From: Escherichia phage vB_EcoM_SHAK7704
Sequence record: OR594181
Strand: one strand, 5' to 3'
Length of the DNA stretch: 44,446 bases
Every line of letters begins with the position of its first letter. The stretch's first letter is position 1. The translations under genes were made by a program, and so were the position numbers. The notes under the pieces are model-generated. The model was given only the letters and a program-made list of their open reading frames with translations. It was not told where the DNA came from and ran no database searches. Below, in pieces: positions 1-44,446 of this stretch.

Positions 1-1896
1 ATGGCTAAGGCAAGAGAATCACAAGCGGAGGCCCTTGCCAGATGGGAGATACTACAGGAGTTACAGCAGACCTTTCCTTACACAGCGGAAGGTTTGCTTC
101 TCTTTGCAGACACAGTTATTCATAACTTAATTGCAGGCAACCCTCATCTGATTCGTATGCAGGCTGATATCTTGAAGTTCCTATTCTACGGACACAAGTA
201 TCGCCTCATCGAAGCGCCTCGTGGTATCGCTAAGACAACACTATCAGCAATCTATACAGTATTCCGTATCATTCATGAACCGCATAAGCGTATCATGGTT
301 GTATCCCAAAACGCCAAGCGAGCAGAGGAAATCGCAGGTTGGGTAGTTAAAATCTTCCGTGGCCTAGACTTTCTTGAGTTTATGCTACCGGACATCTACG
401 CAGGGGACCGTGCCTCAGTTAAGGCATTTGAGATTCATTACACCCTACGTGGCAGTGACAAGTCGCCTTCTGTGTCTTGTTACTCAATCGAAGCAGGTAT
501 GCAGGGTGCGCGTGCAGATATCATCCTAGCAGATGACGTTGAGTCAATGCAGAATGCTCGTACAGCGGCAGGACGTGCCTTGCTTGAGGAACTGACCAAG
601 GAGTTTGAATCTATTAACCAGTTTGGTGATATTATCTACCTTGGTACTCCTCAGAACGTAAACTCTATCTACAATAACCTACCTGCTCGTGGTTACTCTG
701 TTCGTATCTGGACTGCACGTTATCCCTCAGTGGAGCAGGAGCAATGCTATGGTGACTTCCTTGCACCTATGATTGTGCAGGATATGAAGGACAACCCAGC
801 ACTTCGCTCAGGGTATGGCTTGGATGGCAATAGTGGTGCCCCTTGTGCACCTGAAATGTATGATGATGATGTACTGATTGAGAAGGAAATCTCGCAGGGT
901 GCGGCTAAGTTCCAGCTTCAGTTCATGCTTAACACTCGCATGATGGATGCTGACCGCTATCCGCTACGCCTGAACAACCTCATCTTCACTTCATTCGGTA
1001 CAGAGGAAGTCCCTGTGATGCCTACGTGGAGCAATGATTCCATCAATATTATTGGCGATGCACCGAAGTATGGCAATAAGCCTACAGACTTCATGTATCG
1101 ACCTGTGGCTCGCCCGTATGAATGGGGCGCTGTCACTCGTAAGATTATGTATATTGACCCTGCTGGTGGCGGTAAGAATGGGGATGAAACGGGTGTGGCT
1201 ATCGTCTTCCTGCACGGCACATTCATTTACGTGTACCAGTGCTTCGGTGTGCCAGGCGGATATCGCGAATCATCCCTGAATCGCATTGTGCAGGCCGCAA
1301 AGCAGGCGGGTGTTAAAGAGGTATTCATTGAAAAGAACTTTGGTCATGGCGCATTTGAGGCCGTTATAAAGCCATACTTTGAACGAGAGTGGCCTGTGAC
1401 TCTGGAGGAAGATTACGCCACCGGACAGAAAGAGTTGCGTATCATTGAAACACTAGAGCCACTAATGGCGGCCCACAGGCTCATCTTCAACGCAGAGATG
1501 GTCAAGTCTGATTTTGAGTCGGTACAGCGCTATCCGCTTGAACTACGCATGTCATACAGCCTTTTCAATCAAATGTCGAACATCACGATTGAGAAGAACA
1601 GCCTACGACACGATGACCGCTTAGACGCTCTGTATGGTGCTATACGGCAATTAACTTCTCAGATAGACTATGACGAGGTTACACGGATTAATCGCCTCAG
1701 AGCGCAGGAGATGCGCGATTACATCCATGCTATGAACACACCTCACCTCCGTAGGGCAATGCTCTATGGAGATTATGGCACTGAGCGAAGAGTAACCAAC
1801 ACTTCCGTGGCTATGCAGCAAAGAGTATACGGTCAGAATTACAGGAGTAAATCGGCAAGCAGAAATACACTTTCTGCAAGGATTTCAAGGATTTAG
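1..1896 (+). CDS. Terminase large subunit (T7 gp19-like)
   Basis: 631 aa; motifs matching T7 gp19 as recalled (RGIAKT, DKSPSV, ADIILADDVE, IIYLGTPQ, LQFMLN, RYPLRL, HDDRLDAL). Confidence 0.9.
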   Translation: MAKARESQAEALARWEILQELQQTFPYTAEGLLLFADTVIHNLIAGNPHLIRMQADILKFLFYGHKYRLIEAPRGIAKTTLSAIYTVFRIIHEPHKRIMVVSQNAKRAEEIAGWVVKIFRGLDFLEFMLPDIYAGDRASVKAFEIHYTLRGSDKSPSVSCYSIEAGMQGARADIILADDVESMQNARTAAGRALLEELTKEFESINQFGDIIYLGTPQNVNSIYNNLPARGYSVRIWTARYPSVEQEQCYGDFLAPMIVQDMKDNPALRSGYGLDGNSGAPCAPEMYDDDVLIEKEISQGAAKFQLQFMLNTRMMDADRYPLRLNNLIFTSFGTEEVPVMPTWSNDSINIIGDAPKYGNKPTDFMYRPVARPYEWGAVTRKIMYIDPAGGGKNGDETGVAIVFLHGTFIYVYQCFGVPGGYRESSLNRIVQAAKQAGVKEVFIEKNFGHGAFEAVIKPYFEREWPVTLEEDYATGQKELRIIETLEPLMAAHRLIFNAEMVKSDFESVQRYPLELRMSYSLFNQMSNITIEKNSLRHDDRLDALYGAIRQLTSQIDYDEVTRINRLRAQEMRDYIHAMNTPHLRRAMLYGDYGTERRVTNTSVAMQQRVYGQNYRSKSASRNTLSARISRI

Positions 1897-1897
1897 T

Positions 1898-1915
1898 ATT
1901 TACTGGACACTATAG
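1898..1915 (+). promoter_or_regulatory. Phage RNAP promoter ATTTACTGGACACTATAG
   Basis: 18-mer matching the consensus repeated across the window; immediately after the terminase stop. Confidence 0.7.
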
Positions 1916-1991
1916 GAGGAAGACCAAGAGAATAAAGGAATATTATAGGATAATATAGGATTACCTATGTTATATAGGTACACCTTATTAT

Positions 1992-2020
1992 GAGGGTACT
2001 CCTGTACCCTCTTCTTATCT
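1992..2020 (+). terminator. Promoter-proximal hairpin GAGGGTAC-tcct-GTACCCTC followed by T-rich run
   Basis: Perfect 8-bp stem, then ttcttatct; about 80 nt downstream of the promoter +1 and upstream of the 2054 ORF. Confidence 0.4.
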
Positions 2021-2053: not shown

Positions 2054-2335
2054 ATGGCTAATAATTATAGTGATCAACCACTAACAGGTCGATATGATCG
2101 AAAGCAGGAGACACCTGTAAGTGAAGCGTTAATGCTCCCTGTTGTTACAGAGGAGTCTATTAAGAAGAAAGCCAATGTTATCAATGATGCAACCAAATCT
2201 GGTAAACAGAAAGCATCAATGGTGTGTCGTCCTGTAGGTGGCACTCTTGAGATTGCCATTGCTACTGGCAGCAGAGAGGATGCAGATTGGTTGTCTGTTA
2301 AAATGGATGGCGTTGGTCTTATTACACCGGCTTAA
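2054..2335 (+). CDS. Hypothetical protein, paralog A of a three-gene family
   Basis: 93 aa; AAGGAG RBS; shares an INxxxxSGKQ...IAxGS..D.W domain with the next two ORFs. Confidence 0.6.
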   Translation: MANNYSDQPLTGRYDRKQETPVSEALMLPVVTEESIKKKANVINDATKSGKQKASMVCRPVGGTLEIAIATGSREDADWLSVKMDGVGLITPA

Positions 2336-2351
2336 TAAAGGAGAAGATAAT

Positions 2352-2636
2352 ATGTCTAAGTATGGCGATGCAGGTACTACTGGTCAGGCTTTTCGTGTAA
2401 AAGCAGTACAAACTATTGCAACTGCAATCCCTATGCCTATCGTGGCAGAAGCTGACCTTAAAAAGAAAGATCATCCAATTAATATTGAACACCTATCTGG
2501 TAAGCAGAAAGGTGCTATGGTGGTTGTAGATAAAGGAGATAATAGCCTTTATATTGCTATTGCACGTGGTTCTGCACCAACTGACCAGTGGGATGTAACT
2601 ACTATGGAAGCTGTACCTGTAACACCAGGAGCTTAA
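2352..2636 (+). CDS. Hypothetical protein, paralog B
   Basis: 94 aa from ATG 2352 with AAGGAG RBS; same conserved domain as paralogs A and C. Confidence 0.6.
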   Translation: MSKYGDAGTTGQAFRVKAVQTIATAIPMPIVAEADLKKKDHPINIEHLSGKQKGAMVVVDKGDNSLYIAIARGSAPTDQWDVTTMEAVPVTPGA

Positions 2637-2637
2637 T

Positions 2638-3327
2638 ATGCTGGGAGTAACAGGACAACGCAATAAGAATGTAGCCACCAAAGTGGTGGCTGATTTAGCT
2701 ACTGCTGCTACTGTCGAGGAATTACGAAACCAACATAGCTCTATTAACCGTGCTGACCTTTCTGGTAAACAAGAAGGTTCCGCCGTTATTATTAAGAAAG
2801 AAGATGGGAATTATTCTATCTTTGTAGCAACAGGAAGCAAGCCGACTGATGTGTGGAAAGAGTTGTCTCCAACAATACCAGAGCAAGAGATGCCTGCTGA
2901 ATATATTGATATGATTGATGTTCAAATTCATCAAGATTCTGCAAGCAACTTACATATAGACTCTTCTCGCACTAGTTTAATACAAACACCAATGTGGGAT
3001 ACTGAAGGTGAGTTGTTATTCCGTAATACACTAAGTGCAACATGTTCTTGTACTATTCTTGTTGATGGTGCGTCTGGTGTTCGTCAGGATTTTACTTTTA
3101 AGATTAATGGACTTTTAGAGCAGGAAGAGCAGTATTATGATATTGACACACTTATGTGCTCTATTCACTCTGCAACAACAACTAATGGCCTTACCTTGTG
3201 TATGCCAGATGCTAAAAGTGCAAAGACTAATAAAGTGGTAGTTAAGATCGACACTATGCAGTCATTAGCTATGAGCTTTGATCTTAACTTCCTTGTAGAA
3301 TGGACGTCACCAACGAGGTTACTATAA
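2638..3327 (+). CDS. Hypothetical protein, paralog C (family domain plus ~140-aa C-terminal extension)
   Basis: 229 aa; N-terminal domain homologous to A and B; stop overlaps the endolysin start (TAATG). Confidence 0.6.
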   Translation: MLGVTGQRNKNVATKVVADLATAATVEELRNQHSSINRADLSGKQEGSAVIIKKEDGNYSIFVATGSKPTDVWKELSPTIPEQEMPAEYIDMIDVQIHQDSASNLHIDSSRTSLIQTPMWDTEGELLFRNTLSATCSCTILVDGASGVRQDFTFKINGLLEQEEQYYDIDTLMCSIHSATTTNGLTLCMPDAKSAKTNKVVVKIDTMQSLAMSFDLNFLVEWTSPTRLL

Positions 3328-3671
3328 TGCTAAATCAATACTTCAAGCGTAAAGAATTTGCTTGCCGTTGTGGGTGCGGTACATCCACTGTTGATGCTGA
3401 GTTACTACAGGTAGTAACAGATGTGCGTGAGCACTTTGGTACTCCTGTTGTTATCACTTCTGGTCATCGCTGCGCCAAGCACAATGCTAATGTAGGTGGA
3501 GCTAAGAACTCTATGCATCTTACTGGTAAGGCTGCTGACATTAAGGTACGAGGCATCTTACCTTCTGATGTACATAAGTACCTTACTGATAAGTACCAAG
3601 GCAAGTATGGTATTGGTAAATATACCTCCTTTACTCATATTGATGTACGTGACGGGTGTGCACGATGGTAG
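3327..3671 (+). CDS. Endolysin, zinc peptidase M15-like fold
   Basis: 114 aa from ATG 3327 (ORF track starts at 3300 but has no RBS); SGHRC...H...D...H motif; sits beside the spanins. Confidence 0.7.
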   Translation: MLNQYFKRKEFACRCGCGTSTVDAELLQVVTDVREHFGTPVVITSGHRCAKHNANVGGAKNSMHLTGKAADIKVRGILPSDVHKYLTDKYQGKYGIGKYTSFTHIDVRDGCARW

Positions 3672-3779
3672 GTTGTGTTGCATGGTGTGAACGCATGGTT
3701 GCTAAGGCTTCAGAGGAAGGCAACTATGAAGATTGGCAGAACTACTCAACTTTATTAGCTCAATGGAAAGGGAGATGCA

Positions 3780-3929
3780 ATGAAAAAGCTGTTCAAATCT
3801 AAGAAGGTTGTAGGTGCACTAGTTGCATTGGCAATTGCTCTTGTTTCTGTAGGTCTTGGTGTAGACCTTGGCTCTGGCACGGAATCCTCTGTGACAGATG
3901 TGGTCTGCCAAGTGATCACCTGTGAATAA
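3780..3929 (+). CDS. Small hydrophobic peptide (49 aa), possible lysis regulator
   Basis: Not in the ORF track (under 60 aa); AAGGGAG RBS 9 nt upstream; MKKLFKSKKVVGALVALAIALVSVGLGV hydrophobic segment. Confidence 0.4.
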   Translation: MKKLFKSKKVVGALVALAIALVSVGLGVDLGSGTESSVTDVVCQVITCE

Positions 3930-4143
3930 GTTTCTAGAAGTGCTGGCAGGTCTTATTGGCCTGCTTGTCTCTGCTAAGAAGAAACAAGAAGAGAAGGAGG
4001 CACAAAGTGAAGCGAATCATGCTAGCGACAACCCTGCTGATTGGTTCGCTGATCATTTCAGGGTGTCAGACGGCGTTACCAGAGAATCCAAAGGTGAAGC
4101 CTCTGAAGCCGACGCTTACGGCAGTCTACGAGGTGGACGATAA
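3922..4143 (+). CDS. i-spanin (Rz-like), candidate
   Basis: 73 aa, GTG start; N-terminal transmembrane segment FLEVLAGLIGLLVSA then charged domain; overlaps the o-spanin ORF. Confidence 0.45.
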   Translation: MNKFLEVLAGLIGLLVSAKKKQEEKEAQSEANHASDNPADWFADHFRVSDGVTRESKGEASEADAYGSLRGGR

Positions 4144-4216
4144 AGTCTGCTTCAGTAAGCCTGACGCTACAAAATTAGGTCTGTACATTCTCTCGCTAGA
4201 ACGCGGGTATAATTAA
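4007..4216 (+). CDS. o-spanin (Rz1-like outer-membrane lipoprotein)
   Basis: GTG 4007 with GGAGG 6 nt upstream (alternative ATG 4019); signal peptide with lipobox IISGC; proline-rich mature part; +1 frame over the i-spanin. Confidence 0.6.
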   Translation: MKRIMLATTLLIGSLIISGCQTALPENPKVKPLKPTLTAVYEVDDKVCFSKPDATKLGLYILSLERGYN

Positions 4217-4347: not shown

Positions 4348-4683
4348 ATGGCTAAGTTAACTAAACCCAAGACAACTGGCTTACTACATAGAGATACTGT
4401 ACTAGCTACATTATTGGATAATTTACTATCTAAAAGGCGTGTTACATTTGAAGGTGTAGTTCCAAGTGAAGATACTAAAATTGAGATAGAAGTACCTGCA
4501 ACAGGAGATTTAGATTCTTCGTGGGCATCACTTGTATCATTAAGTACACCTACACTTTGTACAGCTTGGATTACTAAAGTGTCAGATACTAGATTAGAAG
4601 TACATGTGTTCCATACAGCACAAGTTGAAATAGACATAGATGTAGATGTTTACATTCTAGGTAAACACATTGTCAGTGCGTAA
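4348..4683 (+). CDS. Short tailspike-like protein (111 aa) in the second-tailspike position
   Basis: ATG 4348 with GGGAGG/AGGAG RBS; sits directly upstream of the endosialidase, where K1-5-type phages carry a second tailspike. Confidence 0.5.
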   Translation: MAKLTKPKTTGLLHRDTVLATLLDNLLSKRRVTFEGVVPSEDTKIEIEVPATGDLDSSWASLVSLSTPTLCTAWITKVSDTRLEVHVFHTAQVEIDIDVDVYILGKHIVSA

Positions 4684-4750: not shown

Positions 4751-7186
4751 ATGATTCAAAGACTAGGTTCTTCATTAGTTAAATTCAAGAGTAAAATAGC
4801 AGGTGCAATCTGGCGTAACTTGGATGACAAGCTCACCGAGGTTGTATCGCTTAAAGATTTTGGAGCCAAAGGTGATGGTAAGACAAACGACCAAGATGCA
4901 GTAAATGCAGCGATGGCTTCAGGTAAGAGAATTGACGGTGCTGGTGCTACTTACAAAGTATCATCTTTACCTGATATGGAGCGATTCTATAACACCCGCT
5001 TCGTATGGGAACGTTTAGCAGGTCAACCTCTTTACTATGTGAGTAAAGGTTTTATCAATGGTGAACTATATAAAATCACGGATAACCCTTATTACAATGC
5101 TTGGCCTCAAGACAAAGCGTTTGTATATGAGAACGTGATATATGCACCTTACATGGGTAGTGACCGTCATGGTGTTAGTCGTCTGCATGTATCATGGGTT
5201 AAGTCTGGTGACGATGGTCAAACATGGTCTACTCCAGAGTGGTTAACTGATCTGCATCCAGATTACCCTACAGTGAACTATCATTGTATGAGTATGGGTG
5301 TATGTCGCAACCGTCTGTTTGCCATGATTGAAACACGTACTTTAGCCAAGAACGAACTAACCAATTGTGCATTGTGGGATCGTCCTATGTCTCGTAGTCT
5401 GCATCTTACTGGTGGTATCACTAAGGCTGCAAATCAGCGTTATGCAACAATCCATGTACCTGATCACGGATTATTCGTGGGCGATTTTGTTAGCTTCTCT
5501 AATTCTGCGGTAACAGGTGTAACTGGTGATATGAAAGTTGCAACAGTTATAGATAAGGACAACTTCACGGTTCTTACAGCCAATCAGCAGACCTCTGATT
5601 TGAACAATGCTGGAAAGAATTGGCACATGGGCACTTCCTTCCATAAGTCTCCATGGCGTAAGACAGATCTTGGCCTGATACCTCGTGTTACTGAAGTTCA
5701 TAGCTTTGCTACTATTGATAACAATGGCTTTGTTATGGGTTATCACCAAGGCGACGTAGCTCCACGCGAAGTTGGTCTTTTCTACTTCCCTGATGCTTTT
5801 AACAATCCATCTAATTATGTTCGTCGTCAGATACCATCTGAGTACGAACCGGATGCGGCAGAGCCATGCATCAAGTACTATGACGGTGTGTTATACCTTA
5901 TCACTCGTGGTACTCGTGGTGACAGGCTTGGAAGCTCTTTGCATCGCAGTAGAGATATAGGTCAAACTTGGGAGTCACTAAGATTTCCACATAATGTGCA
6001 TCATACTACTTTACCGTTTGCTAAGGTAGGAGATGATCTTATTATGTTTGGTTCAGAACGTGCAGAAAATGAATGGGAAGCAGGTGCACCTGATGATCGT
6101 TACAAGGCATCTTATCCCCGCACCTTCTATGCACGATTGAATGTAAACAAGTGGAGTGCAGATGACATTGAATGGGTTAACATCACAGACCAAATCTATC
6201 AGGGTGACATTGTTAACTCCAGTGTAGGTGTAGGTTCGGTGGTAGTTAAAGATAGTTACATTTACTATATCTTTGGTGGTGAAAACCATTTCAACCCAAT
6301 GACTTATGGTGACAACAAAGATAAAGACCCATTTATTGGACATGGACACCCTACTGATATATACTGCTATAAGATGCAGATTGCAAATGACAGTCGTGTA
6401 TCTCGTAAGTTTACATATGGTGCAACTCCTGGTCAGGCTATACCTACTTTCATGGGTACTGATGGTATTCGCACTATTCCTGCTCCACTTCACTTATCAG
6501 GAGAGGTAGTTGCCGCAGATATGACTGTCGAACACCTTACCTTGAAGGCAAGTACAAGTGCTAATATTCGCTCAGAGATGCTGATGGAAGGTGAATATGG
6601 GTTCATTGGTAAGACTATACCAACGGATAACCCAACCGCCCAACGTGTTATCATCTCTGGTGGAGAGGGTACAGCAGCAGATACCGGTGCGCAAATTACC
6701 TTACATGGAGCAGGTTCTAGCACTTCTAGACGCGCAGTATATAATGCCAATGAGCACTTGTTCCAAAGTGGAGCTATCATGCCATACAATGATAACGTGT
6801 ATCCTGCTGGCGGCCCTCGTAATAGATTCACTACTATCCATCTTACAAGTGACCCTATTATTACGTCTGATGCCACTCATAAGTATGGATCACAAGGTAT
6901 TGATGAGAGTGTACTAAAGGCATGGGGTAAGGTTAGCTTCAAGCAGTACAAGTTGATTGGTGAGATGTCTCGTGGTGTGCACCACACTCACTTTGGTGTA
7001 TTGGCACAAGACATTGTAGCTGCTTTTGCATCCGAAGGGTTAGATGCAATCGACTTCGGCATTGTCTCCTTCGAAGAAGGTCAGTTTGGTGTTAGATATA
7101 GTGAAATCTTAATCTTGGAGGCTGCTTATACTCGCTATCGTTTAGACAAGTTAGAGGAGATGTATGCCACTAATAAAAGCAGTTAA
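4751..7186 (+). CDS. Endosialidase tailspike (endo-N-acetylneuraminidase) with C-terminal intramolecular chaperone domain
   Basis: 811 aa; sequence recalled as near-identical to K1E/K1-5 endosialidase; C-terminal chaperone-domain motifs; strong AAAGGAGG RBS. Confidence 0.9.
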   Translation: MIQRLGSSLVKFKSKIAGAIWRNLDDKLTEVVSLKDFGAKGDGKTNDQDAVNAAMASGKRIDGAGATYKVSSLPDMERFYNTRFVWERLAGQPLYYVSKGFINGELYKITDNPYYNAWPQDKAFVYENVIYAPYMGSDRHGVSRLHVSWVKSGDDGQTWSTPEWLTDLHPDYPTVNYHCMSMGVCRNRLFAMIETRTLAKNELTNCALWDRPMSRSLHLTGGITKAANQRYATIHVPDHGLFVGDFVSFSNSAVTGVTGDMKVATVIDKDNFTVLTANQQTSDLNNAGKNWHMGTSFHKSPWRKTDLGLIPRVTEVHSFATIDNNGFVMGYHQGDVAPREVGLFYFPDAFNNPSNYVRRQIPSEYEPDAAEPCIKYYDGVLYLITRGTRGDRLGSSLHRSRDIGQTWESLRFPHNVHHTTLPFAKVGDDLIMFGSERAENEWEAGAPDDRYKASYPRTFYARLNVNKWSADDIEWVNITDQIYQGDIVNSSVGVGSVVVKDSYIYYIFGGENHFNPMTYGDNKDKDPFIGHGHPTDIYCYKMQIANDSRVSRKFTYGATPGQAIPTFMGTDGIRTIPAPLHLSGEVVAADMTVEHLTLKASTSANIRSEMLMEGEYGFIGKTIPTDNPTAQRVIISGGEGTAADTGAQITLHGAGSSTSRRAVYNANEHLFQSGAIMPYNDNVYPAGGPRNRFTTIHLTSDPIITSDATHKYGSQGIDESVLKAWGKVSFKQYKLIGEMSRGVHHTHFGVLAQDIVAAFASEGLDAIDFGIVSFEEGQFGVRYSEILILEAAYTRYRLDKLEEMYATNKSS

Positions 7187-7397
7187 GCAAGCGGCTGTAC
7201 GCCAGAACACAGAAGAACTTATTCAATCAGGACGTGACCATAAGCAGGCTTATGCCATTGCTAAGGATGTACAACGTCGTGCCGGATTTCCCCCATATGG
7301 GGGCCGCGCTGCGGTTGGCTTGGGAATTGGGCTAGGCTGGGCCGTCTTCGACGGGTGGCCTAGAGCTTGCCGAGGTCTGCTCTTAGTGGCTGCACAA

Positions 7398-7531
7398 GGA
7401 GAACGCCTAGGAAGCGCTAGGGCACGCCTTAGTATTGGACAAGGTGATTGCCTTAGTGCAACCGCTTAGGGCTTACACAGGCCGTTTTAGGGCCATTCCT
7501 GAGCGTTTGACAAGGTGGGCGTGGGTGGGCT
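7398..7531 (+). repeat. Direct repeat copy 1 (134 bp), putative right terminal repeat
   Basis: Identical base-for-base to 7532-7665 in direct tandem. Confidence 0.7.
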
Positions 7532-7665
7532 GGAGAACGCCTAGGAAGCGCTAGGGCACGCCTTAGTATTGGACAAGGTGATTGCCTTAGTGCAACCGCT
7601 TAGGGCTTACACAGGCCGTTTTAGGGCCATTCCTGAGCGTTTGACAAGGTGGGCGTGGGTGGGCT
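7532..7665 (+). repeat. Direct repeat copy 2 (134 bp), putative left terminal repeat
   Basis: Identical to 7398-7531; followed at 7666 by ATCTGTT. Confidence 0.7.
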
Positions 7666-7716
7666 ATCTGTTCGTTTCGTTCACTCCGCTTGCGCTCCGT
7701 TCACTCGCTCACGTGT

Positions 7717-7845
7717 ACCTTAGGTTATTCCTTGATGGATGGCTTAGGTTAGCCTTAGTGGGCTGCCTTAGTTAAAGCCTTAGTGCTTAGCTTAGTATCA
7801 ACTTAGTAGTGTACCTTAGTAAGTCTTAGTGTCTTCTCTTAGTGA
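7717..7845 (+). repeat. Array of about 10 short CTTAGT-type repeats next to the terminal repeat
   Basis: ccttagg, gcttagg, ccttagt, gcttagt, acttagt, tcttagt recur every 8-15 bp. Confidence 0.6.
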
Positions 7846-8027
7846 TTGCATAGCTAAAGCTATAAGATGCAATTAGGTCGCGGTCGGTAGACCGCTAAGA
7901 GTAGGTAATAGTAATAAGATGCAGTAGGAGGAACACCAGAAACCTAGCCAACCTAGCCTATCCTAGCTCTGTATCTATTGCTTTCCTTAGTCTCACATGT
8001 TAGACAACCTATGTTTATCTTAGTAGT

Positions 8028-8043
8028 TGTGACATGTATCACA
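8028..8043 (+). promoter_or_regulatory. CRP-like site TGTGA-N6-TCACA
   Basis: tgtgacatgtatcaca matches both CRP half-sites; centred about 72 bp upstream of the predicted early start site. Confidence 0.3.
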
Positions 8044-8072
8044 TAAATAATCTATCTTAGTGAAACTTAGTG

Positions 8073-8101
8073 TTGACATAGGCAATCAACTGGTATACAT
8101 T
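8073..8101 (+). promoter_or_regulatory. Host sigma70-type early promoter
   Basis: TTGACA at 8073-8078, 17-bp spacer, TACATT at 8096-8101; about 400 bp inside the left genome end. Confidence 0.5.
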
Positions 8102-8251
8102 AGCAATCACTGAGACGGACCTAGCAAGCTGTCTCAGGTTATAAGCAGGAGAATTGATGCGTAAGCCATAGCTAGTGGATGTAGTCGCATGAAGGCTTGA
8201 GTAAGGGGCCGCTTAATACCTTCTTCCTCTGGAGACAACGCTTATAACACT

Positions 8252-8264
8252 GCTCTTTAACAAT
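8252..8264 (+). promoter_or_regulatory. Conserved early intergenic 13-mer GCTCTTTAACAAT (copy 1), candidate RNase III site
   Basis: One of five near-identical copies, each 40-70 nt upstream of an early gene start and flanked by imperfect dyads. Confidence 0.4.
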
Positions 8265-8322
8265 CTGCTTAGTGTAACCTATGTATGCCGTGGTTAATTA
8301 CTTATTGAATGAAGGATTAACT

Positions 8323-8550
8323 ATGAAAGTACAAGTAAAAGCGTACAACATGCCAGTTGATGAGATTCAGCACTTCCTCGATAAAGGTTATGACTTATGT
8401 AAGATGCGCACACCAGATAACTATGACTACTCACCTAAATATCTGCATTATATTGATCTTAAGATGGGTAAGAAGTTAGTTATTACAGGTACTGCATATA
8501 ACCGCATTATCAAAGTTCTTAAAGAGGGTGCTAATCATGACATTAAATAA
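8323..8550 (+). CDS. Early hypothetical protein
   Basis: ATG 8323 with GAAGGA RBS (track ORF starts at 8281 without RBS). Confidence 0.5.
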   Translation: MKVQVKAYNMPVDEIQHFLDKGYDLCKMRTPDNYDYSPKYLHYIDLKMGKKLVITGTAYNRIIKVLKEGANHDIK

Positions 8551-8716
8551 CCGTGAACTGTCCGTTCTCTTCACTCTGTTGTGCTACATGATTCGTAACA
8601 ACGAATTACTTACAGATGATGAGTTAGCCTTGTATCACCGCTTTCTTAACGAAGGTTGGACCGATACGGTTAATCAATACCGTAACATGATAGATGAGTT
8701 GAGGGAGGGTAGATAA
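8537..8716 (+). CDS. Early hypothetical protein
   Basis: ATG 8537 after GAGGG RBS; stop overlaps the next start. Confidence 0.45.
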   Translation: MTLNNRELSVLFTLLCYMIRNNELLTDDELALYHRFLNEGWTDTVNQYRNMIDELREGR

Positions 8717-8940
8717 TGTATCAACATGAGGTATTCTTTGAATCATCTAGCGAAGCTATTCGCTTCCACGATGATATGCTACAAGCTGGCGTAGGTGTTG
8801 ATGTACATCACTTCCTACTAGATTACGACACTGAATATCACCGAGTTACCTTAGTATCTGAGTATGACAACCAAGTCATTACTGAGTATCTAGGTAGTGA
8901 AGATTATGATTACGATGAAGTAATCACGACAAATCTCTAA
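8716..8940 (+). CDS. Early hypothetical acidic protein
   Basis: 74 aa; TAATG stop-start overlap; Asp/Glu/Tyr-rich. Confidence 0.5.
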   Translation: MYQHEVFFESSSEAIRFHDDMLQAGVGVDVHHFLLDYDTEYHRVTLVSEYDNQVITEYLGSEDYDYDEVITTNL

Positions 8941-9010
8941 ATTAACTATTGACAACCACGGCATACAAGGTTACATTAAGCATCAAGACGGCGACGTCTT
9001 TAAACATCAC

Positions 9011-9023
9011 GCTCTTTAACAAT
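9011..9023 (+). promoter_or_regulatory. Conserved 13-mer GCTCTTTAACAAT (copy 2)
   Basis: Preceded by hairpin AAGACG-gcga-CGTCTT. Confidence 0.4.
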
Positions 9024-9168
9024 AGAGATTAGGCCGGGAGTATCGGTGTGAGGGACAAGGAGGCTTTCCCACAATTAAACTGGTGGCAAAAGGATTGCCC
9101 AGCTTTATAGCCCAGTTATGGATAGCAATAGCGTAAGGATGGCAGCACACCCGCGAGTCTAATCTCTA

Positions 9169-9181
9169 GCTCTTTAACAAT
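9169..9181 (+). promoter_or_regulatory. Conserved 13-mer GCTCTTTAACAAT (copy 3)
   Basis: Upstream of the 9225 ORF. Confidence 0.4.
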
Positions 9182-9224
9182 CGGGCTAGTGCCTTGGTAG
9201 GCTAACTACTTACTAAGGTGAACT

Positions 9225-9437
9225 ATGAACTACTGCGACATCGCTCACGAATTACGCATGGAACGTGAGAAACAAGAGAAGCGGATTATCAAGAAGATGG
9301 CTGTACTGCTTGCACACTATAAGGCAGACAAACAGCCAACACATGATGAGTTCGTGGACTTCTGTAACATGTATCTTAATGTGAGTAAGGCCACTGGTTA
9401 CAGATGGCTTAAAGCACTGAATGATGGAGAATTGTAG
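9225..9437 (+). CDS. Early small protein with possible HTH-like segment
   Basis: 70 aa; AAGGTG RBS; C-terminal SKATGYRWLKAL resembles excisionase/AlpA-type DNA-binding helices. Confidence 0.5.
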   Translation: MNYCDIAHELRMEREKQEKRIIKKMAVLLAHYKADKQPTHDEFVDFCNMYLNVSKATGYRWLKALNDGEL

Positions 9438-9480
9438 CAATAAGCCAGCTTAATAGCTGGCCTATCAAGGCACTAACCTA

Positions 9481-9493
9481 GCCCTTTAACAAT
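9481..9493 (+). promoter_or_regulatory. Conserved 13-mer GCCCTTTAACAAT (copy 4) inside a bulged dyad
   Basis: Flanked by cctatcaaggcac / gtgtcttgatagg imperfect inverted repeat; preceded by hairpin GCCAGCT-taat-AGCTGGC. Confidence 0.45.
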
Positions 9494-9539
9494 CTGGTTT
9501 TGTGTCTTGATAGGCTTACTAACAGAAAGGTAAATTATC

Positions 9540-9707
9540 ATGGAAACTTTAATCGTTACCACTACAATCAACGGCGTAAGTATCAGCATAACTAAGTATT
9601 CTTCCGAAGAGTATGAAGTGAATCACGGAATAGCTGCTATGGTGTATGACAACTTGGCAGATGCCGTGGAGCATTGGATACAGTCATGTAAGGCTGCAAT
9701 TAAGTAG
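9540..9707 (+). CDS. Early hypothetical protein (55 aa)
   Basis: Not in the ORF track; AAAGG RBS; METLIVTTTINGVSISITKY... Confidence 0.4.
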   Translation: METLIVTTTINGVSISITKYSSEEYEVNHGIAAMVYDNLADAVEHWIQSCKAAIK

Positions 9708-9752
9708 GAAAGAGAAGGCTGGCACTAGCCAGCCTATCAAGGCACAAGCCAC

Positions 9753-9765
9753 GCTCTTTAACAAT
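9753..9765 (+). promoter_or_regulatory. Conserved 13-mer GCTCTTTAACAAT (copy 5)
   Basis: Preceded by hairpin GGCTGGC-acta-GCCAGCC; upstream of ocr. Confidence 0.4.
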
Positions 9766-9861
9766 ATGGGTAGTCGCTTCTTAGTCTGGATAGGTTAAAC
9801 CTAGGAGATTCTCTTGAGTCTCCTATAATGTAACCTAACTAACTAAATGAGGATTAATAAC

Positions 9862-10218
9862 ATGGCTATGTCTAATATGACTTACTCTCAGGTTTACAAC
9901 ACCGCTCATGCTGCATTAGTTGAACGTATCTGGGATGATGCTATTGATTGTATCGATAACGCACATGATGCAATCCATGAGGTGGCGGGTAGTGCTGTAC
10001 CAATCTATTATGCTGACATCTTCTCGGTGATGGCCAGTGAAGGCATCGACCACTTCTTCGAGGATTCTGGCTTAATGCCAGACACTAAGGATGTGACGGT
10101 CGTACTACAAGCCCGTATTTATGAACAACTCACCATTGATTTATGGGAACGTGTTCAAGATATGATTGATGCGTACATCGATTCCGCTGAGGATTCAGAA
10201 GAAGAGGAGGAAGAATAA
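9862..10218 (+). CDS. ocr: Ocr-like DNA-mimic anti-restriction protein (T7 gene 0.3 homolog)
   Basis: MAMSNMTY...[15 protein letters not shown]...[13 protein letters not shown]...[15 protein letters not shown] with acidic C-terminus, closely matching T7 Ocr as recalled; start at ATG 9862. Confidence 0.85.
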
Positions 10219-10324
10219 AGATGGAAAGGCAATATAACTTTATCTTCTCAGACGGTGTAACCCTGAAATGTTCCTTACGATTTGCGCAGATTCGTGAGGA
10301 AGTACTAGGAACTACATACAAGCT

Positions 10325-10342
10325 ATTTAGCTGACACTATAA
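10325..10342 (+). promoter_or_regulatory. Variant phage promoter ATTTAGCTGACACTATAA (SP6-like upstream half)
   Basis: Matches the SP6 consensus ATTTAGGTGACACTATAG except G to C at one position and A in place of the +1 G. Confidence 0.4.
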
Positions 10343-10410
10343 GAGAAGACTTAACAAGGCGTTGCTACGGTAGCGCCTGATTAAACTTTCACTTACTAGG
10401 AGTTAAGATT

Positions 10411-10638
10411 ATGGATTTAGATAGCATCATTATGGCATTTGCTCTTATTGGCTTAAGCTGGTGCTCCTATCACCTTTACCGTGAGTTCTTATTTGATAAA
10501 GCTAAACGCAAACTAAGAAAGGAAGGCGGTAATTACCTTTGTATAAGAGGTGGCTTAGTCGAATACATTGCACCTAACGGCATGGAGTGCGCCATTAACA
10601 AAGATGCATTTATAGAGACGTGGCATTACATCAAGTAG
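10411..10638 (+). CDS. Early small membrane protein
   Basis: 75 aa; N-terminal transmembrane segment IIMAFALIGLSWCSY; GGAG RBS. Confidence 0.55.
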   Translation: MDLDSIIMAFALIGLSWCSYHLYREFLFDKAKRKLRKEGGNYLCIRGGLVEYIAPNGMECAINKDAFIETWHYIK

Positions 10639-10702
10639 CTAGCCTATAGCCTACCTGTGTGGGCTATGTGATATTTACTTACCACTATATAAGGTGACTA
10701 TT

Positions 10703-11587
10703 ATGACTACTGAAAACACCCTCCTGTCTGTCCGCGAAGCTGCAACCGCTGAGATTAAGCAGCATTTGGATAATATCGGCACTTCTTACATCAAAGTAGG
10801 TGCTTGTCTGAATGAGTTACGCGGAGACTTCGAAGGTCAAAAAGAGTTCTTAGCCTATGTTGAAGCAGAGTTCGGCATCAAGAAAGCACAATGCTACAAG
10901 CTGATGAGTGTAGCCCGTGTCTTTGAAGGTGACGAACGATTCAAAGGCGTGGCTATGCGTGTAATGCTGGCGCTTGTTCCTTTCGCTGATGAGAGTATCA
11001 TCATGGAGAAGGCCGCAGAACTTGCCGCAGAGGGCAAGCTGGACACTAACGCCGTAAACGCCCTAATTGAGTCTAAGAAAGAGCCAAAGGCCGAGACGGT
11101 ACAATCTAAGGCTGAGCCAGTAAAACCGCAGGAGAACGCGGCTGAGGCCGCAGAATCACAGGAAACGCAAGCGCCGCAGGTAGTGCCGCCAATGAGTGAG
11201 CCGGACACCGACGAATCCGCACCGTGGGAGGGCGAAAGCAAGCCGGAAGCACCTAAGGCTGCGCCTCTGGACAACACTGCTAACACAGAGAACGCCGCCA
11301 TGGCTGGCCTGTTGGCACAAATTAAGGCACTGACTGAGCAATTACAGGCGGCTAACGACCGCATCGCAGCTCTAACCAGTGCACGTGAAAGCAAGAAGGC
11401 AGCCGCGCCTATGCTCCCACAATTCAAATCCAAATGTTTCTATGCTCGCTTGGGTTTGAGTGCTGAGGAGGCAGAGAAGAAAACAGCAGTGAACAAGGCA
11501 CGCCGCGAACTGGTTAAACTGGGATACGGTGAAGGCCATGAGGCATGGCCCTTAATCTCTGAGGCAGTAGAAGAATTAACTAAGTAA
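10703..11587 (+). CDS. Early hypothetical protein with Pro/Glu/Ala/Lys-rich linker
   Basis: ATG 10703 after AAGG; globular N-terminal ~120 aa, low-complexity middle, conserved-looking C-terminal ~60 aa; directly upstream of the RNAP gene. Confidence 0.6.
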   Translation: MTTENTLLSVREAATAEIKQHLDNIGTSYIKVGACLNELRGDFEGQKEFLAYVEAEFGIKKAQCYKLMSVARVFEGDERFKGVAMRVMLALVPFADESIIMEKAAELAAEGKLDTNAVNALIESKKEPKAETVQSKAEPVKPQENAAEAAESQETQAPQVVPPMSEPDTDESAPWEGESKPEAPKAAPLDNTANTENAAMAGLLAQIKALTEQLQAANDRIAALTSARESKKAAAPMLPQFKSKCFYARLGLSAEEAEKKTAVNKARRELVKLGYGEGHEAWPLISEAVEELTK

Positions 11588-14743: not shown

Positions 14744-14962
14744 ATGGCTAAATACAGAATCAAGACCTGTTTAAATAGTCACGGGCAAGAGTGCTACATA
14801 GTGCAACGTAAAGTATTAGGCTTAATATGGGTCACGTGTATGATGCCTATTGGCTATACTGATACAGAGGCTATCTTCTGCACCGAAAGGGATGCAAAGA
14901 AGTTTATCTCTGAGCGTAGAAAAGCTGACTCTTACCAACCCAGAACTATTAAGGTGAACTAA
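14744..14962 (+). CDS. Hypothetical protein
   Basis: 72 aa; stop overlaps the primase/helicase start. Confidence 0.5.
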   Translation: MAKYRIKTCLNSHGQECYIVQRKVLGLIWVTCMMPIGYTDTEAIFCTERDAKKFISERRKADSYQPRTIKVN

Positions 14963-16950: not shown

Positions 16951-17111
16951 TGGAAATTATTAAACCAGTATTGAATATCGGTATTGAGATCCTATTCATG
17001 CTTGTGATCGCAGATTATGCTGCACGATATGGATTCAAGAAAGCGGTGAAACTTATCGTTGCATCTGGTTTTCTTATGTCAATGTTCTTTATTGTAACAC
17101 GCCTTATCTAG
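16950..17111 (+). CDS. Small membrane protein (53 aa)
   Basis: Not in the ORF track; TAATG overlap with the helicase stop; two hydrophobic segments. Confidence 0.4.
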   Translation: MEIIKPVLNIGIEILFMLVIADYAARYGFKKAVKLIVASGFLMSMFFIVTRLI

Positions 17112-17124
17112 TGTATTTATCAGG

Positions 17125-17148: not shown

Positions 17149-17183
17149 TCTTATTAAGTACATTAAATAACTGGAGATTGATT

Positions 17184-26946: not shown

Positions 26947-26947
26947 T

Positions 26948-42998: not shown

Positions 42999-43960
42999 TG
43001 AGTTATACTTTCACAGAACATATAGCCAACGGTACGCAAGTAACCTATCCCTTTAGATTTGCTGGCAGGGATAAAGGCTATCTTCGTGCCTCAGATGTGA
43101 TAGTGGAATCTCTTCAAGGTAACACTTGGATTGAGGTTACATCTGGCTGGCAATTAACTGGTACGCATCAAATCACTTTTGATGTAGCACCTGTTGCAGG
43201 TTTGAAGTTCCGTATTCGAAGGGAAGTACAAAAGGAGTATCCATACGCTGAGTTTGACCGTGGTGTTACCTTGGATATGAAGTCTTTAAATGGTTCTTTC
43301 ATTCATATACTGGAGATTACACAGGAGTTACTTGATGGGTTTTATCCAGAAGGATACTTCATTAAGCAGAATGTAAGCTGGGGCGGCAATAAGATTACTG
43401 ACCTAGCTGATGGTGAGAATCCAAAAGATGCAGTAAATAAATCACAGCTAGATGCTATCGACAAGAAGCATACTGATTGGAACTCTGCACAAGATATAGA
43501 GATTGCTGGTATTAAGAGAGGAATGGTGTCTGGTGTATCTCATCGCACTATTCCTTGGTATATGGTCGCCTCCGGTGGAGAGCAAATCATTCGACCACCT
43601 TACTCATTTGATGATGCTATGGTGTTTATAAACGGTGTATTCCAGCATGAACTAGCAGGTGCAGTATCAGTGGGGTATAATGTTATAACCCTGTCCGAGC
43701 CATTACAGGCTGGGGATGAAGTTTATGTGCTTATAGGTAGTCGCTTAACCCCACCTACAAGTGCGGATACTATCCTCTTTACACAAGCAGTGAGTGAAGG
43801 TACACAATCTATCGACATTGTAACGGCTTTCCAACGTCTTGATGTATACTTGGATGGCCTGTATCAACCTAATAATGCTTATGAAATCGTAGGGTCTACT
43901 ATCACTTTCAGTGAGCCATTACCTGAGTGTGTCGTAAGTATGAAGCTACAACTAGTGTAA
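42998..43960 (+). CDS. Tailspike adaptor protein (T7 gp17 N-terminal-domain-like)
   Basis: 320 aa; ATG 42998 overlapping the upstream TGA; position before holin as in SP6-like phages. Confidence 0.7.
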   Translation: MSYTFTEHIANGTQVTYPFRFAGRDKGYLRASDVIVESLQGNTWIEVTSGWQLTGTHQITFDVAPVAGLKFRIRREVQKEYPYAEFDRGVTLDMKSLNGSFIHILEITQELLDGFYPEGYFIKQNVSWGGNKITDLADGENPKDAVNKSQLDAIDKKHTDWNSAQDIEIAGIKRGMVSGVSHRTIPWYMVASGGEQIIRPPYSFDDAMVFINGVFQHELAGAVSVGYNVITLSEPLQAGDEVYVLIGSRLTPPTSADTILFTQAVSEGTQSIDIVTAFQRLDVYLDGLYQPNNAYEIVGSTITFSEPLPECVVSMKLQLV

Positions 43961-43969
43961 GGAGGTGAG

Positions 43970-44164
43970 ATGATTAACTCCGAACTGGTAGATAGTGGTG
44001 TGAAGCTTGCGCCACCTGCATTAGTCTCAGGTGGGTACTTCCTCGGTATCAGTTGGGATAATTGGGTGTTAATAGCAACATTCATTTATACCGTGTTGCA
44101 AATTGGAGACTGGTTTTATACCAAGATTAAACTATGGAGGAAGAATCGTGAGCGTCCACAATAA
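43970..44164 (+). CDS. Holin (T7 gp17.5-like, class II)
   Basis: 64 aa; WDNWVLIATFIYTVLQIG resembles T7 gp17.5 LNEWFYVAAIAYTVVQIG as recalled; AAGGAGG RBS. Confidence 0.75.
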   Translation: MINSELVDSGVKLAPPALVSGGYFLGISWDNWVLIATFIYTVLQIGDWFYTKIKLWRKNRERPQ

Positions 44165-44446
44165 ACATGCAGCTACAGAAGATGAGGTTGGCATCCTGCA
44201 TGGTGCTATTACCAAAATCTTTAATAAGAAAGCACAGGCAATACTGGACACTATAGAAGAAGACCCAGATGCAGCACTGCATTTAGTCTCTGGTAAAGAT
44301 ATTGGAGCTATGTGTAAGTGGGTTCTTGATAATGGTATTACCGCTACACCTGCTGCACAGCAGGAGGAGTCCAAGCTATCTAAGCGCCTCAAGGCTATCC
44401 GAGAGGCATCAAGTGGCAAGATTATTCAATTCACTAAGGAGGATTG
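44148..44446 (+). CDS. Terminase small subunit (3' end wraps to position 1)
   Basis: GTG 44148 with GGAGG 7 nt upstream; ORF runs to the window end; last two bases tg plus first base a make a TGA stop overlapping the terminase ATG. Confidence 0.65.
   Translation, partial: MSVHNKHAATEDEVGILHGAITKIFNKKAQAILDTIEEDPDAALHLVSGKDIGAMCKWVLDNGITATPAAQQEESKLSKRLKAIREASSGKIIQFTKED
44259..44276 (+). promoter_or_regulatory. Phage RNAP promoter variant CAATACTGGACACTATAG, intragenic
   Basis: Conserved -12 to +1 region; encodes ...LDTIEE... of the small terminase. Confidence 0.5.

Follow-up and report, generated by a model that had tools for sequence, protein, structure and literature searches.

Phages of the T7/SP6 type carry linear virion DNA with a short exact direct terminal repeat (DTR) and replicate through head-to-tail concatemers that hold one repeat copy per junction. 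The terS/terL terminase cuts these concatemers at both repeat boundaries, and the repeat is duplicated in packaging; because of this single copy per junction and its duplication at packaging, short-read assemblies close into a circle. For comparison of the repeat boundaries we used five reference genomes whose records hold an exact repeat at both ends, namely K1E (288 bp), mutPK1A2 (286 bp), KAW1A4500 (267 bp; given as 266 bp in the literature, PMC6563267), K1-5 (234 bp) and SP6 (174 bp). All five have the left boundary …AAAATTTTGATATAGGCGTGTGT…|TCTC… and the right boundary …GGGCTA|TCTGTTCG…, and the left context recurs in 139 phage records, whose hosts include Escherichia, Klebsiella, Salmonella and Proteus. 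The two contexts are alike (…GGCGTGTGT.AG.T.|TCTC on the left versus …GGGCGTGGGCTA|TCTG on the right). In phage UAB_Phi78, the physical ends were mapped experimentally (PMC4837284).

The closest described systems are the Vectrevirus genomes KAW1A4500 (MK373773) and K1E (NC_007637), which are collinear throughout with the window, that is, the whole 44,446-nt stretch analysed here (Escherichia phage vB_EcoM_SHAK7704, record OR594181). Like the window, both have a single endosialidase tailspike together with a 111-aa gp46, a 1-nt terS/terL overlap, the conserved right-boundary context and an intergenic palindrome (GTCTCACRTGTGAGAC) at syntenic sites; a search of SP6 for this palindrome found none. 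K1E differs from the window in that its terL is interrupted by the HNH gene 40.5, in lacking a third gp41/42 paralogue (229 aa) that the window shares with KAW1A4500 and mutPK1A2, and in several divergent early genes, the window's ocr-like gene having 59.7% identity to K1E gp3. K1-5 (NC_008152) shares the genus and gene order of the window, and its 234-bp repeat lies between the same two contexts, but it has a second tailspike, the K5 lyase gp46 (632 aa), beside its endosialidase, where the window has an endosialidase and the 111-aa gp46. SP6 (NC_004831), a Zindervirus, resembles the window in placing the terminase after the virion genes and the lysis and tailspike genes at the right end, and the boundary contexts of its 174-bp repeat are conserved with those of the Vectrevirus references; its tailspikes differ, as does its promoter core (ATTTAGGTGACACTATAG, compared with ATTTACTGGACACTATAG in the window). 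Finally, KAW1A4500 and K1E keep the left repeat boundary and an unduplicated repeat, whereas the window record is without that boundary and has half of the repeat doubled. This combination resembles the T7-like assemblies of Elek et al. 2023 (PMC10438801), in which a repeat in the DTR region was likewise unsupported by an independent look and terminal-repeat sequence was lost. Those cases were ~79-bp repeats in Shovill przondovirus assemblies checked by Sanger sequencing, whereas here a 134-bp unit and a 342-bp loss were checked by an independent assembly.

Judged by its sequence, the window is the genome of a lytic podophage of E. coli with the K1 capsule, K1E-like and belonging to the genus Vectrevirus (Molineuxvirinae, SP6 group). 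Whole-genome blastn gave a single collinear + strand path against each of K1E, mutPK1A2, KAW1A4500, K1-5 and SP6. By the ICTV criterion, members of a genus share at least 70% nucleotide identity across the length of the genome; identity multiplied by aligned fraction was 0.86–0.93 for the four Vectrevirus genomes (KAW1A4500, 0.93; K1E, 0.90; mutPK1A2, 0.87; K1-5, 0.86) compared to 0.54 for the Zindervirus SP6. Collinear matches were found for 53 of the 59 annotated K1E CDS tested, mostly at 90–100% amino acid identity, and K1E proteins mapped on the + strand in the gene order of Molineuxvirinae (early, RNAP, replication, virion, terS/terL, lysis/tailspike). The window also encodes its own single-subunit (T7-type) RNA polymerase, a trait of Autographiviridae and Molineuxvirinae, and contains 12 ATTTACTGGACACTATAGAAG-like 21-mers, most of them between genes and all on the + strand, which are putative phage-RNAP promoters of SP6 type. 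No tRNA genes were found in the window. An earlier note on this DNA had called it a complete, circularly permuted, K1E/K1-5-type SP6-like genome. The SP6-like gene content and order stand, the alignments that it proposed against K1E, K1-5 and SP6 being fully collinear on the + strand, and the type is more exactly that of K1E, with one endosialidase tailspike, a 111-aa gp46 remnant and no K5 lyase. The permutation is also borne out but the completeness is not: compared with an independent contig of the same phage (Logan contig SRR23502025_193, described below), 342 nt are absent at 7280|7281 and 134 nt are surplus. As for the phage, vB_EcoM_SHAK7704 is an ordinary one. Its genes are arranged as follows.

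1..1896, + strand: large terminase subunit, 631 aa, uninterrupted, the window beginning at its ATG; phrog_17672/38 (E=3e-241); 99.6–99.7% amino acid identity to K1E gp40A + gp40B, without the HNH insert; Pfam Terminase-T7_RNaseH-like match on the identical Logan protein
2054..3327, + strand: three tandem gp41/gp42-family paralogues of 93, 94 and 229 aa, all phrog_2725 and the third also phrog_32357; K1E holds the first two only
3327..4216, + strand: lysis genes, matching K1E gp43, gp44 and gp45 at 83–96%
3327-3671, + strand: M15 peptidase endolysin; phrog_894 endolysin; PF08291 on the identical Logan protein
3780-3929, + strand: gp44-like 49-aa protein, matching K1E gp44
4007-4216, + strand: Rz-like gp45, matching K1E gp45
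4348..4683, + strand: gp46, 111 aa, 97% identity to K1E gp46 along the whole protein; phrog_15083; site occupied in K1-5 by the K5 lyase tailspike
4751..7186, + strand: endosialidase tailspike, 811 aa, predicted to be K1 capsule-specific; phrog_1171 tail spike (E=3e-267); 89.6% to K1E gp47; Pfam End_N_terminal, End_beta_propel, End_beta_barrel, End_tail_spike and Peptidase_S74 on the identical protein
7667..8280, + strand: non-coding left-end region rich in the heptamer CTTAGTG, of whose 22 genome-wide matches (7.35 expected) 10 lie at 7382-8274, all on the + strand
8281..11587, + strand: early genes, matching K1E gp1 to gp6; PF08684
9847-10218, + strand: ocr-like anti-restriction gene; phrog_2568 ocr-like
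10703-11587, + strand: gp6 homologue, matching K1E gp6
11651..14278, + strand: single-subunit RNA polymerase, 875 aa, 99.3% to K1E gp7; PF14700 and PF00940 on the identical protein
14962..21036, + strand: replication block of primase/helicase, small ORFs and DNA polymerase; PF03796, PF00476
14962-16950, + strand: primase/helicase, 98.5% identity to K1E gp9
18490-21036, + strand: DNA polymerase, 99.2% identity to K1E gp13
23796..28008, + strand: DNA metabolism genes (exonuclease, endonuclease VII, phosphoesterase, DUF3310 kinase-like, DNA ligase), K1E gp19 to gp24; PF02945, PF11753, PF14743
29007..43960, + strand: structural block (portal, scaffold, major capsid, tail tube A, nozzle/tube B, internal virion proteins gp34-gp36, tail adaptor gp37), K1E gp29 to gp37 at 94–99.6% identity; PF12236, PF17212, PF25675, PF24072, PF00959
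43970..44164, + strand: holin, 64 aa, 100% identity to K1E gp38; PF10746
44148..44446, + strand: small terminase subunit, 99 aa, 100% identity to K1E gp39 over 99 aa; PF11123 DNA_Packaging_2

The record is a circular permutation that opens at the terL ATG and splits the terS/terL overlap over the window ends. The small-terminase ORF starts with GTG at 44148 and has no stop codon inside the window; bases 44445-44446 (TG) and base 1 (A) together form TGA, base 1 doubling as the A of the terL ATG, and the overlap reads TGATG (1 nt). A 1-nt overlap is also annotated in K1E (37091-37390 / 37390-), SP6, K1-5 and KAW1A4500. In the independent contig, terS (5389-5688) and terL (5688-7583) are contiguous with the same overlap, and by blastn window position 44446 falls on K1E 37389 and position 1 on K1E 37390. 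On these grounds positions 44446 and 1 are adjacent, as had been claimed; the check proposed for the joined ends yields the expected TGA overlapping the terL ATG, although the motif reads TGATG and not ATGA. A record that starts at the terL ATG suggests deliberate re-orientation, as by tools such as Dnaapler.

The anomalies of the record are confined to the region of the terminal repeat, which contains the following features.

7164..7469, + strand: spurious 101-aa ORF, its first 40 codons from the 49-aa gene-48 homologue, then continuing past the deletion junction into terminal-repeat sequence
7278..7283, unstranded: deletion junction …CGTCGT GCC GGATTT…, with 342 nt missing compared to the same phage's independent contig
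7281..7531, + strand: homologue of the terminal repeat, covering nt 17-267 of the canonical 268 bp; 100% identity to Logan contig 13310-13560 and 83–98% to the repeats of K1E, mutPK1A2 and further relatives
7398..7665, + strand: exact tandem duplication, 2 x 134 nt, copies at 7398-7531 and 7532-7665
7627..7696, + strand: conserved right-boundary context …TTGACAAGGTGGGCGTGGGTGGGCTA|TCTGTTCGTTTCG…, lying at the DTR/unique boundary in K1E, mutPK1A2, KAW1A4500, K1-5 and SP6

We infer the virion ends of vB_EcoM_SHAK7704 by homology with the exact-repeat records and with the mapped ends of UAB_Phi78. The right-boundary context (…GGGCTA|TCTGTTCG…) occurs in the window at 7627-7696, and base 7666 is the predicted right end. 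The left-boundary context (…AAAATTTTGATATAGGCGTGTGT…|TCTC…) does not occur in the window, only because it falls within the missing 342 nt, and TCTCGCCCTCGCC was not found in the window with two mismatches allowed. Within the missing segment lie the last part of gene 48, a 29-aa ORF, the left-boundary context and the first 16 nt of the repeat; the junction shows 3 nt of microhomology (GCC), and the deletion ends 16 nt inside the left boundary. Gene 48 is an intact 49-aa ORF in the independent contig and in relatives, and the phrog_2423 match of the 101-aa ORF is confined to residues 1-40. The fused 101-aa protein had no match on record anywhere searched.

The second anomaly is the tandem repeat near 7531/7532, which the earlier note had correctly reported and taken for the true ends. 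Its two copies match at 100% (TRF score 536), and each is the distal half of the canonical repeat (nt 134-267), stopping at 7531 and at 7665, 1 nt before the conserved right boundary (GGGCTA|TCTGTTCG). The duplication junction (GGGCT|GGAGAACG) has no microhomology, and none of the standard assembler overlap lengths fits 134. The unit is single-copy in the independent contig and in six relatives.

The independent evidence comes from Logan contig SRR23502025_193 (44,670 nt), derived from public reads. In a 15-billion-protein collection, the window's exact primase/helicase and scaffold proteins lay on one long contig only, this one, which we rebuilt from four loci without conflicts. It agrees with the window at 100.000% identity across the full 44,446 bases, bar two differences: an additional 342 nt at 7280|7281 and the 134-nt unit once rather than twice. 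From this identity, the contig, itself an assembly, probably comes from the same DNA source as the window. Its left context is intact and lies 268 nt ahead of the right boundary, so that its repeat is the canonical one of 268 bp, and it passes the repeat region unbranched on the canonical path. By this comparison, the missing left boundary is a failing of the record and not of the phage.

With the contig identical elsewhere, 342 nt longer at one point and holding one 134-nt copy, the 134-bp duplication and the 342-bp gap are most likely artefacts of assembly or finishing at the terminal repeat. We consider it highly probable that the genome is K1E-like with a canonical ~268-bp repeat and that both anomalies are such errors rather than features of the phage DNA. 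The real repeat would then be about 268 bp long, beginning with TCTCGCCCTCGCCC…, which the window lacks, and ending with …GGGTGGGCTA at window 7666, with a predicted unit circle of 44,654 bp and a predicted virion DNA of about 44,922 bp. At each junction the right breakpoint meets a conserved terminus, 1 nt before the right boundary for the duplication and 16 nt inside the left for the deletion. Against the artefact reading speak the 3 nt of microhomology at the deletion, which are few, and the misfit of 134 with standard assembler overlap lengths. Rotation of a linear contig could account for at most one of the two junctions, and 7531|7532 may be the place where the linear record was joined on rotation. 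There is precedent in T7-like phages, for which spurious ~79-bp repeats in or near the DTR were reported in 7/10 short-read assemblies, most of them, including that of phage Tokugawa, shown by Sanger sequencing to be artefactual (PMC10438801).

A variant of the artefact explanation, differing only in which junction rotation made, is possible but clearly the less likely account. Here the deletion would be an unassembled gap: the contig would have run from repeat nt 17 (7281) round to gene 48 (7280), its ends being joined on rotation to terL, and the 134-bp repeat would be a separate internal assembler artefact near the DTR. A contig beginning 16 nt in from the physical left end agrees with the use of transposase libraries, in which physical DNA ends escape capture, and spurious internal repeats at or close to DTRs are on record (both PMC10438801). 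The length of 7281-7531, 251 nt, is one often seen in MiSeq reads, although this may be coincidence. Two unrelated errors are needed, however, and there is no cause for an assembler to halt 326 nt before the repeat, a stretch that the independent contig crosses unbroken.

The placement of the true ends at 7531/7532 would correspond to a 134-bp DTR, with a left end at GGAGAACGCC… (7532), a right end at …GGGTGGGCT (7531) and the copies brought into tandem by rotation of the linear genome; we regard this as very improbable. An exact tandem repeat is what a rotated linear record should show, and copy 1 stops 1 nt before the conserved right terminus, like a contig ending at the physical right end, the terminal A being ambiguous in run-off sequencing. 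In addition, the 14 nt that precede 7398 agree at 8/14 positions with the sequence upstream of the right boundary, a score reached at only ~0.9% of genome positions. A collapsed assembly gives one repeat copy for a DTR of either 134 or 268 bp, so that the independent contig is compatible with this reading and its single copy alone is no refutation. The case against it is made instead by the intact canonical left site and by homology. The repeats of the five references extend 174–288 bp from the left context (267 bp in KAW1A4500, the closest), and the independent contig keeps that context 268 nt upstream of the right boundary. Position 7532 corresponds to repeat nt 134, and its flanks match neither boundary context beyond the 8/14, which is weak after allowing for other positions. 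As left cuts, both 7397|7398 and 7531|7532 are without the TCT… downstream half-site, and on the right the unit falls 1 nt short. The 342-bp loss would also be left unexplained. A physical end of virion DNA at 7531|7532 is, on this comparison, not supported.

Very improbable, finally, is a pair of real, linked changes, in which a derivative of the SRR23502025 phage would have lost its left cleavage site, conserved throughout the subfamily, by the 342-bp deletion and been rescued by the 134-bp duplication, the duplicated right half-site (GGGCGTGGGTGGGCT|) 134 nt upstream providing a new left cut and a new 134-bp terminal repeat. If true, such compensatory rearrangements would be a natural experiment in which one recognition element defines both ends of a T7/SP6-type genome; the left and right contexts are similar enough that one nuclease might plausibly recognise both, both junctions sit at the two cleavage positions, and the upstream half of the right site is retained at the duplication junction. 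Against this, that junction is without the downstream half-site TCTG, the junction sequences of the record (GTACAACGTCGTGCCGGATTTCC and GTGGGTGGGCTGGAGAACGCC) were both absent from IMG/VR and the deletion junction from JGI metagenomes and GTDB genomes, no ORFs spanning the two junctions are on record, the left context is kept in so many phage records (the 139 above) that its loss would probably be strongly deleterious, the independent contig is unbranched on the canonical path, and zero substitutions over 44.3 kb relative to that contig fit one DNA preparation better.

The long ORFs of the window (44,446 bases) all lie on the + strand, and a megablast search of 50,697 phage records returned 185 and 134 matching records for its two halves. 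The top matches were Escherichia K1 phages of the genus Vectrevirus at 94-98% identity (PhiNW-E1, Phi100-A, vB_EcoP_D, K1E KY435490 and UTI89UKE2). Using blastn against complete reference genomes, we obtained a single collinear + strand path, with a product of identity and aligned fraction of 0.933 for KAW1A4500, 0.904 for K1E NC_007637, 0.873 for mutPK1A2, 0.856 for K1-5 and 0.538 for SP6. When the 59 annotated CDS of K1E were tested, 53 were matched in the window in the same order, mostly at 90-100% amino acid identity, including RNAP, primase/helicase, DNAP, portal, scaffold, capsid, tail tube proteins, internal virion proteins, adaptor, holin, small and large terminase (terS and terL), endolysin and endosialidase; PHROG and Pfam assignments were consistent with these matches. 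Twelve SP6-type promoter-like 21-mers (ATTTACTGGACACTATAGAAG) were present, and a search of the window for tRNA genes found none. The tailspike region is of the K1E type, with a 111-aa gp46 and one endosialidase, as opposed to the K5 lyase plus endosialidase of the K1-5 type. Based on the collinear path and the ordered K1E CDS, the earlier note was correct in identifying a permuted K1E-type genome, and the phage is a new, ordinary member of the well-sampled genus Vectrevirus. Its biological weight is small: it is another K1-capsule-specific Vectrevirus, and dozens of members of the genus have already been sequenced.

The two ends of the window are adjacent in the molecule. The terS gene starts at GTG 44148, is 100% identical to K1E gp39 and runs for 99 codons to base 44444; its TGA stop is formed by bases 44445-44446 (TG) and base 1 (A), with which the terL ATG begins. 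The adjacency of 44446 and 1 claimed in the earlier note thus stands, while the overlap motif reads TGATG, with a 1-nt overlap, and not ATGA. An identical overlap is annotated in K1E, SP6, K1-5 and KAW1A4500, and window positions 44446 and 1 align to K1E 37389 and 37390. In an independent assembly of the same phage from public reads (Logan contig SRR23502025_193), terS (5389-5688) and terL (5688-7583) are contiguous. Because joining the ends restores TGATG, and given the K1E alignment and the contiguous contig, the window is a circular permutation cut within the terS/terL overlap; a record that begins precisely with the terL ATG suggests that it was re-oriented deliberately. In the window terL is uninterrupted (1-1896), whereas in K1E NC_007637 the HNH homing-endonuclease gene 40.5 divides it into 40A and 40B, and in mutPK1A2 and Logan contig ERR14656793 an HNH gene lies between terS and terL. 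A promoter-like match (CAATACTGGACACTATAGAAG, 44237-44267), 68% identical to the reference copy, falls within the terS CDS just upstream of terL.

To locate the physical termini, we relied on five reference genomes carrying an exact repeat at both record ends, with direct terminal repeats (DTRs) of 288 bp in K1E, 286 bp in mutPK1A2, 267 bp in KAW1A4500 (given as 266 bp in PMC6563267), 234 bp in K1-5 and 174 bp in SP6. In all five, a left context opens the DTR (…CCAAAGTCAAAATTTTGATATAGGCGTGTGT(C/G)AG… followed by TCTC…, varying by 1-2 nt between records) and a right context closes it (…GGG(C/T)GTGGGCTA followed by TCTGTTC…). The left context was found in 139 phage records, with Escherichia, Klebsiella, Salmonella, Proteus and others as hosts. 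The window has an intact right context (7627-7696) but neither the left context nor repeat nt 1-16, and the left end TCTCGCCCTCGCC was not found there even at two mismatches. The exact 134-nt tandem repeat (7398-7531 and 7532-7665) thus has as its unit nt 134-267, the distal half of a ~268-bp canonical repeat, and not a whole terminal repeat. On this sequence comparison, the virion right end (…GGGTGGGCTA) would fall at window 7666, and 7531 would be an artefactual second image of it; the left-end sequence is missing from the window at 7280/7281.

The left and right boundary contexts resemble each other (…GGCGTGTGT.AG.T. before TCTC… and …GGGCGTGGGCTA before TCTG…, respectively), and both are kept from SP6 to K1E though the repeat interior ranges from 174 to 288 bp. 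A single nuclease recognizing both boundaries would fit their likeness. We rejected 7397/7398 as a cryptic terminase site: its upstream sequence agrees with the right boundary at 8/14 positions, a match equalled at ~0.9% of positions and too weak to count. UAB_Phi78, whose ends were mapped with a Bal31 time course (PMC4837284), has an experimentally derived DTR annotation of positions 1-180 that, relative to the SP6-type left end, begins 17 nt upstream. The precise cut positions may thus vary among phages or laboratories, from a few nt up to ~17 nt; variation on this scale is not enough to save a cut at repeat nt 134.

The Logan contig (44,670 nt) encodes the window's exact tailspike protein, and the exact primase/helicase and scaffold proteins led to no other long contig in the collection and to no NCBI accession. 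The whole contig was rebuilt from four overlapping loci without conflict and compared with the window, giving an alignment with 0 mismatches and 0 gaps.

Correspondence between the window and Logan contig SRR23502025_193
Window 1-7283: contig 5688-12970, 100.000% identity
Window 7281-7531: contig 13310-13560, 100.000% identity
Window 7532-38775: contig 13427-44670, 100.000% identity
Window 38761-44446: contig 2-5687, 100.000% identity

The two sequences differ only by 342 nt found in the contig alone, at window 7280/7281, and by the 134-nt unit, which is single in the contig. Such a pattern of two differences and nothing else does not fit a separately evolved phage. The earlier description of the window as complete is off by these 342 nt, which comprise the last nine codons and stop of gene 48 (49 aa; a small gene after the endosialidase tailspike), a 29-aa hydrophobic ORF, the left context and TCTCGCCCTCGCCCTC. 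In the contig the canonical repeat occupies 268 nt (13294-13561). The unit circle comes to 44,654 bp, and virion DNA of ~44,922 bp is predicted; the window record falls 208 bp short of the collapsed genome. The contig measures 44,670 nt instead of 44,654 because its ends overlap by just 15 nt, with the first base mismatched (G vs A), an end effect of that assembly. As judged from this assembly, the phage has the ordinary Vectrevirus end structure. The 29-aa ORF (MLYIMAGSLWVIMAFFFIAWLLGWRPSCS, contig 13137-13226), with the RBS AAAGGAGGT (Shine-Dalgarno), follows gene 48 and precedes the terminal repeat; this stretch is variable among relatives, with other small ORFs there. Among related phages from SRR8427704, SRR8427707 and SRR8427712, the 49-aa gene 48 was intact in all three, and the unit was single-copy in the two contigs that reach through the repeat (SRR8427704 and SRR8427707).

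Six close relatives, together with the right ends of K1E and mutPK1A2, were aligned to the repeat region. The 134-nt unit is single-copy in the aligned relatives as against two copies in the window, and between gene 48 codon 40 and terminal-repeat nt 17 they carry an additional 225-435 nt or more that the window lacks. At the deletion, which has a 3-nt microhomology (GCC), the window passes from …CAACGTCGT to GCCGGATTT… (junction sequence GTACAACGTCGT joined to GCCGGATTTCC). The duplication junction (GTGGGTGGGCT joined to GGAGAACGCC; GGGCT followed by GGAGAACG) is without microhomology, copy 1 stopping 1 nt before the right boundary. Searches for both junction sequences in IMG/VR, and for the deletion junction in JGI metagenomes and GTDB genomes, gave 0 matches, so no independent occurrence of either was found. 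Two junction-spanning ORFs, a 101-aa fusion and a 39-aa ORF at 7435-7554, were looked up and neither was on record.

Both anomalies are likely to be errors of assembling, circularizing, defining the termini of or rotating a terminally redundant linear genome. One edge of each lies close to one of the two conserved terminus positions, at a distance of 1 nt for the duplication junction and 16 nt for the deletion. Of 10 short-read assemblies of T7-like phages, 7 were reported to contain spurious repeats of ~79 bp in or near the DTR; Sanger sequencing showed most of these repeats, including that of phage Tokugawa, to be artefacts, and such assemblies often lose DTR sequence (PMC10438801). By reconstruction, we sought a single operation yielding both junctions and found none; rotation can account for one junction at most. 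The apparent deletion may reflect an incomplete contig whose two ends, with a gap between them, were joined on rotation, with the duplication a separate internal error, or the rotation join may be 7531/7532, with the deletion a separate error. Among numerical clues, 134 is exactly half of 268, 254 is 2 x 127, and 7281-7531 spans 251 nt, a MiSeq read length; 134 is absent from the usual k-mer overlaps (55, 77, 99, 127 and 141). Elsewhere the window and the contig agree base for base, and the contig is canonical through the region; on these grounds a real origin by template switching, or by end joining of mature genome ends, was set aside.

A true 134-bp DTR with ends at 7531/7532, where the earlier note had placed them, is very improbable and that placement is unsupported: the canonical left site is intact 268 nt upstream of the right site in the Logan contig, and by homology the unit is half a repeat. 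Since the contig is itself an assembly, and a collapsed assembly gives one repeat copy regardless of true repeat length, the case against this DTR rests on the left site and homology and not on copy number. Also very improbable is a real compensatory deletion and duplication, the copied right-boundary half-site becoming a new left cut, which would suit the likeness of the two contexts but is opposed by zero substitutions over 44.3 kb relative to the Logan contig, by the unbranched, canonical path of that contig and by the absence of the junctions and junction-spanning ORFs from the collections searched.

As it stands, the record is unfit for defining termini, repeat length, gene 48 or genome length, because it is 208 bp short, contains a false 101-aa ORF, lacks the left packaging context and suggests a false 134-bp DTR. 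In rotated phage records, apparent joined terminal repeats need to be checked against the boundary contexts of relatives before being read as physical ends.

Several other features were observed. A 16-nt perfect or near-perfect palindrome, GTCTCAC(A/G)TGTGAGAC, occurs at eight sites compared with 0 expected by chance (7990-8005, 14352-14367, 14543-14558, 15561-15576, 17129-17144, 18303-18318, 23203-23218 and 39643-39658). It is mostly intergenic, with three of the eight sites directly upstream of promoter-like sites, and it recurs at syntenic positions in K1E, mutPK1A2, KAW1A4500 and K1-5; no exact match was found in the SP6 and UAB_Phi78 loci. The palindrome may serve as a binding site for a protein or as a hairpin for RNA processing. 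The heptamer CTTAGTG has 22 matches genome-wide (7.35 expected), of which 10, all on the + strand, cluster within ~900 nt at 7382-8274, covering the terminal repeat and left-end non-coding region, an arrangement reminiscent of the short repeats near T7 genome ends. At 2054-3327, three adjacent paralogues of 93, 94 and 229 aa all match phrog_2725, whose annotation as 'acetyl-CoA acetyltransferase' looks doubtful given the small protein size; the 229-aa paralogue, which also matches phrog_32357, is present in mutPK1A2 and KAW1A4500 but not in K1E. Finally, an ocr-like anti-restriction gene (9847-10218) is among the genes most diverged from K1E, with 59.7% amino acid identity over part of its length compared with 93-100% for its neighbors.
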